This document shows, piece by piece, positions 6,595-27,639 of a stretch of 64,000 bases of DNA. A program made the position numbers and the translations under genes. The notes under the pieces are model-generated. The model was not told where the DNA came from. It saw only the letters and a program-made list of their open reading frames with translations, and ran no database searches. The first letter of the stretch is position 1. Each line of letters opens with the position of its first letter. The stretch is taken from assembly GCA_951406725.2 (NCBI GenBank), contig OX597828.1, positions 43,772,001-43,836,000 on the forward strand, in the 5' to 3' direction. Source of the DNA: Octopus vulgaris. Its lineage: Eukaryota.

Positions 6595-6805
6595 ACGCCA
6601 TGATAGACCGTTAGCACCTACACACATTTTTTCTCTCCTTGTTTCTCTCCTTGTTTCTTTTCTGTGTATCTTTCTGTCGAAGAGCGTAGGCTCGAAACGT
6701 TAAAGACTTGTTCTATTTCTATTCCTGAGCGCCATACTAATACATTTGTTTGTTTGTACTCCACCTGCCTTCGTCTTTTGTTTATTTTCGTAAACCTTCC
6801 CGTTA
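6595..6805 (+). mobile_element. Short TA-flanked repeat family carrying a variant hammerhead motif
   Basis: Closely similar to 61608-61813 (+) and to the reverse complements of 8923-9070 and 50125-50315; abuts (TA)n. Confidence 0.8.
6669..6706 (+). ncRNA. Minimal hammerhead-like motif, non-canonical core CUGUCGA
   Basis: UCUUU-CUGUCGA-A-GAGC(GUAG)GCUC-GAAA-CG-UU-AAAGA: stem I 5 bp, stem II 4 bp, palindromic AACGUU in place of stem III. Confidence 0.5.
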
Positions 6806-6836
6806 TATATATATGTATATATATATATATATATAT

Positions 6837-7516
6837 ATCACAATCAAGGAACGGCCATAATAGGCCATTCACCCACTAGAAATAACAGCCAAAGCTTCAA
6901 CCGCAAAATAACATTAGTTCCGCAAACCAGGAGAAAATTAAAAAACATTTACCCTGTAATTTCTTATACGATGCACCGTTTCATCTACTGTTTAATGGTA
7001 AACTAACCTGATTAAATTAAATCAAGCCAATCTTCCATAGGCCCTTAGATTCGTCAGTAAGAAATAGCCAGAACGGAACAGATATTTTCACGAGGCATTT
7101 CTGTCCCTGCCTCGGCAATATCTGACCTAAAATTTTCAAATCATCGCACTCGCGCCAAATTTATCGGCAGCAAATAAATATAAGCCGCCGATTCCATTAC
7201 GGAATCAACCAGAAAATTCATAATTAATCAATATAGGGTGGCAAAAAAAATTTTGTAGAATTTTTTTGCCACCAGCGGCCTAGTGGGAAAAAATTAAATA
7301 GTCATAGACCATTTATAAGTTCAACATCACAATCAAGGAACGGCCATAATAGGCCATTCACCCATTTCTAGTGGGTGAATGGCCTATTATGGCCGTTCCT
7401 TGATTGTGATGTTGAACTTATAAATGGTCTATGACTATTTAATTTTTTCCCACTAGGCCGCTGGTGGCAAAAGAATTCTACAAAATTTTTTTTGCCACCC
7501 TATATTGATTAATTAT
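6837..7516 (-). mobile_element. Non-autonomous retrozyme / PLE pseudo-LTR-like element with terminal redundancy and an inverted arm
   Basis: 39-nt direct repeat at 6837-6875 and 7326-7364 (period 489); 7220-7364 is inverted at 7372-7516; one HHR inside; (TA)n on both sides; no ORF. Confidence 0.75.
6959..7065 (-). ncRNA. Type I hammerhead ribozyme, intact core
   Basis: AUUUCUUA-CUGACGA-AUCUA..(long hairpin)..UAGAU-GAAAC-GGUGCAUC-GUA-UAAGAAAU: 8-bp perfect stem I, all core nucleotides present, GUA cleavage triplet. Confidence 0.9.
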
Positions 7517-7573
7517 ATATATATATATATATATATTTATGCTTGTTCATTTATAAGAAAATCAATTTTACAT

Positions 7574-7622
7574 GAATCTGATGAGCTACTCTATACCATC
7601 GTAGAGAACAAGTTTGTTATTC
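7574..7622 (+). ncRNA. Decayed type I hammerhead motif
   Basis: GAAU-CUGAUGA-GCUAC..GUAGA-GAAC-AAGUUU-GUU-AUUC; stem I intact, GAAA and the stem II closing pair damaged. Confidence 0.45.
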
Positions 7623-8737
7623 TTATACAAGAACGTTATTGACAGTGACTTCGAAGTTTCGGTCAGTTTAGACATCGTTGGAATGGAATGCATTAGAATT
7701 AGTTTTGCCCTTTCTATGGTTATTACGGAGAGTTGTTTTGGAGAATATTTTATACATCAAATCTGAGGTTATGCGAATTTTTAGGATTTTTCACCTCTGT
7801 AAAAGTTTACAAAAAAATGTTGAGGTGCTTCTCTTTTATTAGATAGGCACAAGATGTGATAGTATTTTAGCTGAATTTGCTTTTAATGAATTTAGACCTT
7901 TTGCTTCGAAAATATAAACGTCAAAGTGACAATCTCCACTATTTAAATACTCAGAAATTTTCAGCATTTTTGTCTAAAAAACAATATAGGCGGGTGTTAA
8001 CTTTTGATAGCTATTTCTTTTGCAGGTCATGGTCTTCGTTAGTATATGAAAATGTTTCCATTGATTTTTGATGTTCGCAAAGTATTTGCGTAAAAGTTTG
8101 TGTGTCCGTATGTTTCTCTCTAGGTGCCCATTGATCTATAAGGAATTTGATGAGTATATGAAGATTTTAACCTTTGTGTTTTATTAAGGGAGAGTTTGAT
8201 TGCTGTCTGTTTATAAAATTTCTTCAAATTCTGTTCCAGATATATGCTAAAGAGGCGCTGTTCTGGAAGGTGTGCGTATATTCATGTACAAAATTAAGAA
8301 GAAATATTATATGAAGTTTAATCAGAAACAAAAGGAAAAGAAAAAATGTTAAAGAATAAAAAGAAAATGATCTTTCAGTTTGTTTGCGCACAAGTATATA
8401 TTTTTATGTATTTGTATTGTAGATTTGTGTATTTGGGTGGGGGTAGCATTTTGGTTGAATATATGTGAAACTTTCAGATAATTTCTAAAGTACTTGATTA
8501 ATGAAAAGCTATAAAAGTATAGAACTGTAAGAGTCTTTTTTTTAATTTATATATTATGGGGATAGTGTATGGTGCAGGTGGATGGAGTGGAGGTGATGAG
8601 ATATTAACACGTTTAACCGTTAGAAACGATTATGGGTTTAAAAAGTTTTAGTCGTTTTAAGATTTTGTGCTTACATGAAGAGATTAGTTCCGAGTTTCGG
8701 TTCAAGATTTCGTCCATGAATGCTAGTATTTAGTAGG

Positions 8738-15214: not shown

Positions 15215-15309
15215 TAAATGGTCTATGACTATTTAATTTTTTCCCACTAGGCCGCTGGTGGCAAAAAAATCTACAAAATTTTTTTTGCCACCCTATATTG
15301 ATTAATTAT
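15215..15309 (+). mobile_element. Fragment of the 6837-7516 element family
   Basis: Nearly identical to 7421-7516, ending at the same TTGATTAATTAT position, embedded in AT microsatellite. Confidence 0.9.
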
Positions 15310-15366
15310 AAATATATATATATATGTGTGTATGTGTGTATGTTTGTGTGTGTGTATGTTTGTATG

Positions 15367-27252: not shown

Positions 27253-27287
<35 letters not shown>

Positions 27288-27293
<6 letters not shown>

Positions 27294-27608
27294 TAAATCC
27301 TTGGGTAGCAAAAAGAAAAATAAATTTGAAAAATTCTAGAAAAATTCTCCGCTACCAGTGGTCTAGCGAGAAGGAAAGAATAGTCAATAGACTCTATATT
27401 ATTCATTTAAACACATAAGAGATGACCATAATAGGACATCTGACTCACTAGAAAGAGCAGTAAAAATCCAAACCACTAATAGTTGTAATTCTGAAAGGGA
27501 AAAACGTTTTTATTTCTTTTTCACTTTCAGAATTACAACTATTAGTGGTTTGGAGTTTAGCTGCTCTTTCTAGTGAGTCATATGTCCTATTATGGTCATC
27601 CCTTATGT

Positions 27609-27613
<5 letters not shown>
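27288..27613. mobile_element. TA-flanked relative of the 6837 family with an inverted arm
   Basis: Arms 27408-27504 and 27517-27613; shares CTACCAGTGGTCTAG, AATAGTCA, CCATAATAGG and CACTAGAAA blocks, in order, with the 6837 element. Confidence 0.75.

Positions 27614-27639
<26 letters not shown>

Follow-up and report, generated by a model that had tools for sequence, protein, structure and literature searches.

Insertions of a hammerhead-bearing, retrozyme-like family in Octopus vulgaris join two arms that begin at two fixed sites

Each insertion of a short, hammerhead-bearing element family in the Octopus vulgaris genome is a site-A arm joined head-to-head to a site-B arm, a near-strict rule that we describe here starting from one locus. 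The locus lies in a 64,000-nt stretch of contig OX597828.1 (assembly GCA_951406725.2, positions 43,772,001 to 43,836,000 of the forward strand), referred to below as the window. On genomic criteria the element is a non-LTR retrozyme, with cleavage and an RNA circle as predictions. We consider it rather probable that such a retrozyme is inserted by a borrowed Penelope-type RT/endonuclease, which would prime on both ends of a TA break, probably on one RNA that is often a ligated circle. The element class is known; the strict A+B rule and the footprint of the ribozyme cut were not found in the literature searched, and the value of the family is therefore in mechanism.

Results

The features of the window locus are collected in Table 1. 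Unit positions are counted from window 6837 as 1, which puts the predicted ribozyme cut at 131|130. Both flanks are (TA)n, and no ORF of at least 120 aa in the ORF list of the window overlaps the element, which an earlier note, made from the letters of the window, had rightly called an ORF-less unit within (TA)n. The other features that it listed were likewise in place. A repeat search in the window returned the 39-nt repeat as an exact match with a spacing of 489, the inverted arms (7220-7364 / 7372-7516) are 99% complementary over 145 nt with 7 nt between them, and the reverse complement of 7365-7516 terminates in CTAGAAA, which the plus strand has only after the first repeat copy. The note had gone on to take the 39-nt terminal redundancy as the bounds of the monomer and the inverted arm as a copy of the same unit across its junction. 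Instead, the redundancy is incidental, arm A having run 1.08 units and inner ends varying from locus to locus, and the inverted arm is a second copy with its own start at the fixed site B. Arm B comprises a 105-nt 'tail', then crosses site A and has its inner end at unit position 46-47. The lengths of arm A (1 to 528) and arm B (384 via 489 to 46-47) thus account for both the 39-nt repeat and the 145-nt palindrome. The monomer RNA would be delimited by the ribozyme cut, not by the 39-nt repeat. A single substitution separates the two arms; it is a family polymorphism (C in 51/130 loci) that fits two templates or recurrent change, and it counts against one molecule at this locus unless recurrent.

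Table 1. Features of the element in the window (window coordinates)
Feature	Position	Strand	Basis
Left (TA)n target tract	6804..6836	n/a	sequence read
Arm A, 528 nt, 1.08 units, from site A (unit position 1) adjoining (TA)n	6837..7364	minus (RNA sense)	
39-nt direct repeat, copy 1 (copy 2 = 7326-7364)	6837..6875	plus	repeat search
Predicted hairpin A (6849-6870) and strand 6872-6879 of the 8-bp helix with 7280-7287	6849..6879	minus	predicted fold, pair counts
Type I hammerhead motif: 8-bp stem I, extended stem II, self-complementary stem III	6959..7065	minus	sequence, family conservation, end pile-up
Predicted hairpin B (7237-7273) and helix partner strand 7280-7287	7237..7287	minus	predicted fold, pair counts
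Arm B, 152 nt, inverted, from site B (unit position 384) at 7516	7365..7516	plus (RNA sense)	
Right (TA)n target tract	7517..7536	n/a	sequence read

Elsewhere in the window, at 15215-15310, the same family has a second, short insertion that consists of one B-type arm, roughly 98 nt long and embedded in (TA)n. The stretch 7538-8330 is occupied by one or more old dispersed repeats, 75-85% identical to other copies, that end at the same TA tract; inside it, at about 7645-7665 of the minus strand, there is a decayed hammerhead-like half with folding not above chance.

By exact motif, the source genome holds at least 1,776 ribozyme 3' halves; (TA)n|A ends number at least 406 and (TA)n|B ends at least 668, and the reversed controls gave 0. 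With the best 40 of 1,224 candidates scored, a DNA search gave 212 matches, mostly 98-99% identical. We mapped 150 distinct loci on the repeated unit, 40 of them picked by similarity, which skews them to long arrays, and 110 taken in genome order from two end-motif lists. Duplicate loci (9-10) were removed ahead of counting, and L078 and L160, each of which fuses two insertions, were left out of within-locus divergence and of the reading of variant patterns. Copies were spread over many contigs, with (TA)n on both sides in 134 of the 141 loci seen whole and on one side in the other 7. Arms go from unit into unit with a period of 489, to a maximum of 14.3 units. Arrays of this length support a periodic source, in line with the circular or concatemeric template that the note had proposed. 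It had also held the insertion to be recent, and the window unit differs by 0.44% from its nearest relatives; units differ by 0.57% within a locus vs 3.8% between loci. A genome search with the unit and a mapping of copy ends had been suggested there, together with the remark that copies always joined to an RT/GIY-YIG ORF would be ordinary terminal repeats of a Penelope-like element (PLE). The search gave periodic arrays with fixed outer ends and variable inner ends, and the copies were bounded by (TA)n with no such joining.

The outer ends lie at two sites, A and B, 105 nt apart. In the 40 similarity-picked loci, whose ends were unselected, they fell at 485-7 (A) or 378-388 (B) in 39, and two-arm loci were A+B in 27/27. 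When all loci are taken together, A+B accounts for 101 of the 111 head-to-head junctions that were uncensored; one was A+A, eight involved an odd piece, and one belonged to a three-piece locus with outer ends B and A. A fold-back origin of the inverted arm was rejected, because each arm often carries sequence missing from its partner and the outer ends are different and fixed. The 105 nt between A and B can be likened to the 'tail' of PLEs, which is 30-40 bp and often found at one end only (Craig et al. 2021, PMC8557442).

Near-mirror junctions (within 12 nt) were found in 22/87 loci, 12 with arms of equal length and 10 with a whole-unit offset (shuffle means 1.6 and 3.0). As a test for circles they proved ambiguous and were set aside, many of them lying in self-complementary stretches where microhomology gives an equal outcome. 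A-arm stops were in excess where the B primer would sit (14/46), a post hoc count to which the microhomology alternative applies too. Three independent A arms (L070, L072, L125) share the end position 234, just past ribozyme stem I.

The arms of one insertion differed in 66/3,821 comparisons at polymorphic sites (1.7%) vs 20% across insertions, and at 35/3,740 when L160, with its two merged insertions, was omitted. An arm's own partner was its best or tied match in 61/83. In 21 of 91 loci, 29 locus-private alleles were common to both arms; another 142 private alleles occurred in one arm only, as expected from later mutation, and are undiagnostic. At the level of sequence comparison, this agreement shows that both arms of an insertion derive from a common source, and it fits either one molecule or two molecules from one source locus.

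The hammerhead is on the minus strand. Stem I pairs 7065-7058 with 6966-6959 (8 bp), the core CUGACGA occupies 7057-7051, stem II extends from 7050/6983, and GAAA (6982-6979), stem III (6978-6969) and GUA precede the predicted cut at 6967|6966. This is the type I HHR, with its 8-bp stem I and cut site, that the note had called intact, a word that applies in the sense that the sequence consensus is satisfied. The region folds better than 200/200 shuffles (z -3.3). Rfam gave no match at gathering score, and its 36 weak matches, with no hammerhead family among them, are hairpin noise. In the minimum-energy fold of the window allele, stems I and II form, but the core pairs with stem III, a short self-complementary 10-mer, in a non-catalytic shape. 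Counted per locus, alleles were U39/C33/G30/A4 at the free position N7 and A79/C32, never G, at H17, and the remaining core positions were invariant except in 1/106. Compensatory pairs occurred in stem I (3 loci) and stem II (5 loci), and a double change in stem III (5 loci) leaves its self-complementarity intact, as a dimeric hammerhead would require. The allele pattern agrees with a working ribozyme, apparently under selection, and since the loci are akin to each other the changes amount to few independent events. Among Xenopus retrozyme dimers, only 1/9 cleaved (Li, Clavereau & Pollet 2026, bioRxiv 10.64898/2026.07.22.740005).

Inner ends piled up just short of the predicted cut. An automatic count covered 201 arms at 117 loci that had been selected through their end motifs; stops fell at positions 71-100 in 7/164 arms at risk, at 101-130 in 38/157 and at 131-160 in 7/119. 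Against a background of 5.2% per 30 nt, the pile-up at 101-130 has a p of 1e-15; the best other 30-nt interval of the first lap held 10/71. Two arms end exactly at position 130. In a hand-entered table, in which one value (L125) was wrong, both arms stopped before the cut in 15 of the loci where both reached this region, a single arm in 6 and neither in 39. We infer that the ribozyme cut formed the 5' end of the RNA template in about one arm in four and that joining cost these arms 0-30 nt; the stops are genomic evidence for cut RNA as a putative template. A pause at the ribozyme structure is disfavoured as the cause of the pile-up, as it would recur at each pass and affect the arms independently. 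Of the same 201 arms, 118 cross one cut site, 45 two and 16 three. At later cut sites stops were seen in 7/79 (unbiased), or in 10/170 with the long-array-biased set, a figure biased low, and neither is a clear excess. Indels at the cut were found in 3/335 passes (median elsewhere 1.3%). Because later cut sites show little or no excess of stops, the templates would appear to form two classes, one cut and one in effect never cut.

The circular sense strand is predicted to fold at -148 kcal/mol (z -7 vs 60 shuffles) and the antisense at -109, and stem I is predicted to close the monomer, or to hold its two ends together. In the predicted fold, hairpins A and B immediately precede, in the 5' direction of the RNA, start site A and start site B (7220), respectively. 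Each site thus lies shortly 3' of its hairpin, and it ends in an AU-ending stretch that contains UUGAUU; the predicted 8-bp helix would place the two hairpins next to each other. Between the sister family described below and this family, 4 compensatory pairs among 26 were counted in the A/B domain, and over 14 sequences 97% of cells pair vs 42-61% in slid controls. We take this conservation as support for the predicted domain, not proof, because a single sequence yielded the structure and the change amounts to a single event separating the two families.

A sister family, with a unit of about 467 nt that can be aligned along its entire length, has a two-arm copy in the window (27287-27614) and further loci at L229-L234. 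Its hammerhead has a perfectly palindromic stem III and a GUC cut, and the genome holds 374 exact ribozyme halves and 2,538 candidates. The A/B spacing is identical. Both arms of the window copy stop just short of the predicted cut, and arms at L231 and L234 do likewise. More distant relatives of the A/B domain at L120:2437-2913 and L039:7577-7805, one of them two-armed, suggest further families. A different TA-flanked repeat was seen at L059:4348-4560 and L177:1990-2365; in L059 it directly abuts a family arm, which may reflect a switch between RNA families or a deletion. Public runs under four organism codes contain at least half of the words of unit 6837-7325, a lead towards spread across related species.

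At least 4 families of RT + GIY-YIG elements are present in the source genome, one of them with many open 781-aa frames, and there are intact RT + GIY-YIG PLEs ending in (TA)n. By eye, at least 2 of the families end in (TA)n 65-125 nt past a hammerhead-like motif. The families carry the CX2-5CxxC linker, which is ascribed to Neptune and Nematis and tied to microsatellite targeting (PMC8557442). Young RT + GIY-YIG elements, candidates for the mobilising enzyme, lie at L220:842-3184 and at L224, L177 and L084; they include the family with open 781-aa frames and a second one whose copies are 99% identical. Among 39 GIY-YIG loci, searched with blastn and a profile of 67 natural units (150 of 6,136 candidates scored), no PLE sharing sequence with the unit was found, and the only match within them was one separate short insertion of the hammerhead family. 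The six sister-family loci, tried as a route to an autonomous partner, led to another ORF-less repeat.

Contigs of 4 of the 14 presumed-RNA runs cover the whole unit, and some span the cut site. Since (TA)n junctions occur in these contigs too, circle, read-through and DNA look alike in them, and we dropped them as evidence for circles. At L038:2992-5441, two variants alternate over four units, one of them being present in the other arm, an arrangement that fits a dimeric circle or a duplicated dimer.

Discussion

Our results suggest the following course of insertion. Arrays would be transcribed and the ribozyme would cut, perhaps in dimeric form by way of its self-complementary stem III, and a host ligase would close some of the monomers into circles. 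The enzyme would then nick both (TA)n strands and start cDNA from two internal sites, 130 and 235 nt 3' of the cut, a step modelled on known PLE biochemistry. One start of each kind and one haplotype in both arms is the pattern seen in the genome. On cut linear RNA both cDNAs would run off at the cut, which would be the cause of the stops observed there; on an uncut periodic template they would go on for about 570 nt on average and could pass several units. Finally, the two cDNA ends would be united head-to-head through a template switch or microhomology, and later unit duplications at the DNA level would extend some of the arrays.

Circles are probably the main long template, a judgement in which we lean one way with no great firmness. 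Private alleles fixed in all units (17 alleles in 15/63 multi-unit loci) are as expected if a single monomer is copied over and over. The scar-free crossings, the low stop rates at later cut sites and the strong predicted fold of the circular sense strand speak for circles too. An element of this kind, primed at the two sites, could also be copied from linear read-through multimers in which some ribozymes stay uncut, with arrays kept by DNA-level duplication and no circle needed; this we hold to be possible, and on the whole unlikely. Multimers would account for the variants in L033, L038 and L167 that are common to both arms yet not fixed, which call for either a multi-unit template or conversion at a later stage. 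They would also suit the period-2, -3 and -5 variant patterns of long arrays. Because these patterns point to DNA-level duplication or multi-unit templates, array length is presumably not pure rolling-circle output. Furthermore, an Anolis PLE works mainly on uncut RNA in vitro (Frangieh et al. 2024, PMC11167929), axolotl retrozymes also yield multimeric RNAs (Cervera & de la Pena 2020, PMC7229834), and the window locus by itself is fitted equally by a linear dimer with one uncut ribozyme, no circle being required. Random partial cutting, however, predicts an equal stop rate at every pass, whereas the rate drops from 24% at the first pass to 9% (7/79) or 6% (10/170) later. Apart from the fixed private alleles, it also counts against multimers that in-register shared variants occur in one locus only, two merged loci being excluded, that no junction outside the cut class recurs between loci (junction tables, by eye), and that (TA)n is missing on one side in just 7/141 loci, so that donor boundaries are rarely carried along.

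Linear cut monomers could build arrays if the enzyme, on reaching the 5' end of a monomer, jumped to the 3' end of the following one or of the same one. Cut linear RNA is evidently in use, to judge from the stops at the cut, stem I is predicted to keep the two monomer ends together, and PLE RTs are related to telomerase (PMC8557442). A jump chance per site would nevertheless make stop rates equal at all passes, which is not what was observed, and array-internal cut sites are free of scars, as the indel count above indicates; we regard this course as very improbable. PLEs typically show a tail at one end, an inverted 5' copy and TA targeting (PMC8557442), and pieces of PLE ORF occur in the examined flanks of 13/150 loci, as an ordinary 5'-truncated pseudo-LTR of an autonomous PLE would lead one to expect. 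Yet these pieces are at least 540 nt away, the three inspected are separate insertions set off by (TA)n, arms run from unit to unit at period 489 and never into an ORF, and same-strand ribozyme spacing is near 489, with none ORF-sized in the first 100 positions listed, so that such an origin is scarcely credible. Just as hard to believe is a DNA-level minisatellite with an inverted arm made by fold-back or hairpin repair. The near-mirror junctions would fit it, and DNA-level duplication does alter arrays, but fold-back is unable to yield two different fixed outer ends or arm-specific sequence, and an RNA stage is indicated by the dispersal, by conservation specific to the ribozyme, by folding specific to one strand and by the stop at the cut. 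Within the preferred reading, a retrozyme inserted by a borrowed enzyme often copying circles, we tentatively propose that one dimer grips both ends of the TA break, starts at two sites of one circular RNA, strand-displaces round it and seals the cDNAs head-to-head, a version slightly more apt to fail than to hold.

The element combines features of two known groups. Like a retrozyme, it has a tandem unit, a type I consensus in each unit, no coding capacity or LTR, and a monomer predicted to be self-paired. As in non-autonomous PLEs, there are two fixed 3' ends (a 105-nt tail at one), an inverted 5'-truncated copy and a microsatellite target; the RT + GIY-YIG ORF between pseudo-LTRs that marks an autonomous PLE is lacking. 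Plant LTR retrozymes, with a type III hammerhead in their LTRs and a 4-bp target duplication, are unlike this family with its type I motif and tandem units. The non-LTR retrozymes of animals described by Cervera & de la Pena (2020, PMC7229834) are alike in being ORF-less tandems of low GC with one type I hammerhead per unit, a self-paired monomer and a weak or palindromic stem III, in genomes that also hold PLEs. Their units are about 170-400 nt, as against 489 nt here, and circles and cleavage were demonstrated there, whereas here both are predictions. The main text of that paper does not contain the words 'inverted', 'microsatellite', 'Octopus' or 'cephalopod', and fixed starts, two arms and TA targeting are not described in it. 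The non-LTR retrozymes of Li, Clavereau & Pollet (2026), with unit lengths of 51-972 bp, are also alike, ranging from monomers to multimers and having type I hammerheads and a tie to PLE pseudo-LTRs; no mollusc is among the species sampled. In Xenopus 24/57 families match a known element, whereas for this family no sequence link to a PLE was found in the 39 GIY-YIG loci, and those authors favour local amplification by unequal crossover, whereas here two-arm insertions from single events hold more than one unit.

The PLE insertions of Craig et al. (2021, PMC8557442) and the MRC1-type non-autonomous PLEs resemble ours in their partial tandems and inverted 5'-truncated copy, in a tail that is often one-ended, in a (TA)n bias tied to the CX2-5CxxC linker of Neptune, and in a target-site duplication that is not visible. 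The differences are that the tail is 105 nt here, not 30-40, that there is no ORF, and that the pairing of a tailed with an untailed arm has been counted and is near-strict. In vitro, the Anolis Poseidon PLE (PMC11167929) likewise has two internal RT starts 3' of the ribozyme that define the tail, an AT-rich target with both strands cut and extended, and a predicted dimer. Its start sites are used without strand preference, whereas here the two starts are used one each; uncut RNA is its main substrate and it gave no reads at the cut, whereas here the cut is visible in the genomic ends of about one arm in four.

In the literature that we searched, a cephalopod retrozyme, a one-A-one-B rule and genomic ends at a ribozyme cut were not found, and older Penelope work may describe the pairing. 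The family is short, young and numerous, and hence each copy records one event, with its two starts, one haplotype and stop at the cut. Moreover, sites A and B, the cut and the (TA)n target are exact substrates for a direct test in vitro. Cervera & de la Pena (2020, PMC7229834) put forward the use of circRNA as an RT template as a hypothesis, and if one dimer does work on a single circle, these insertions would be the first evidence of retrozyme circles as actual insertion templates, and ribozyme cutting in vivo would be legible from the genome. Craig et al. (2021, PMC8557442) state the mechanism of tandem and inverted PLE insertion, and the role of the ribozyme, as open. A dimer working on a circle would, if true, explain the PLE tail, the tandem pseudo-LTR and the inverted copy at once, and the insertions would preserve, like fossils, the step that is missing from accounts of Penelope integration. 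Collectively, the family turns two questions raised by these known systems, how PLEs integrate and what retrozyme circles do, into defined tests.
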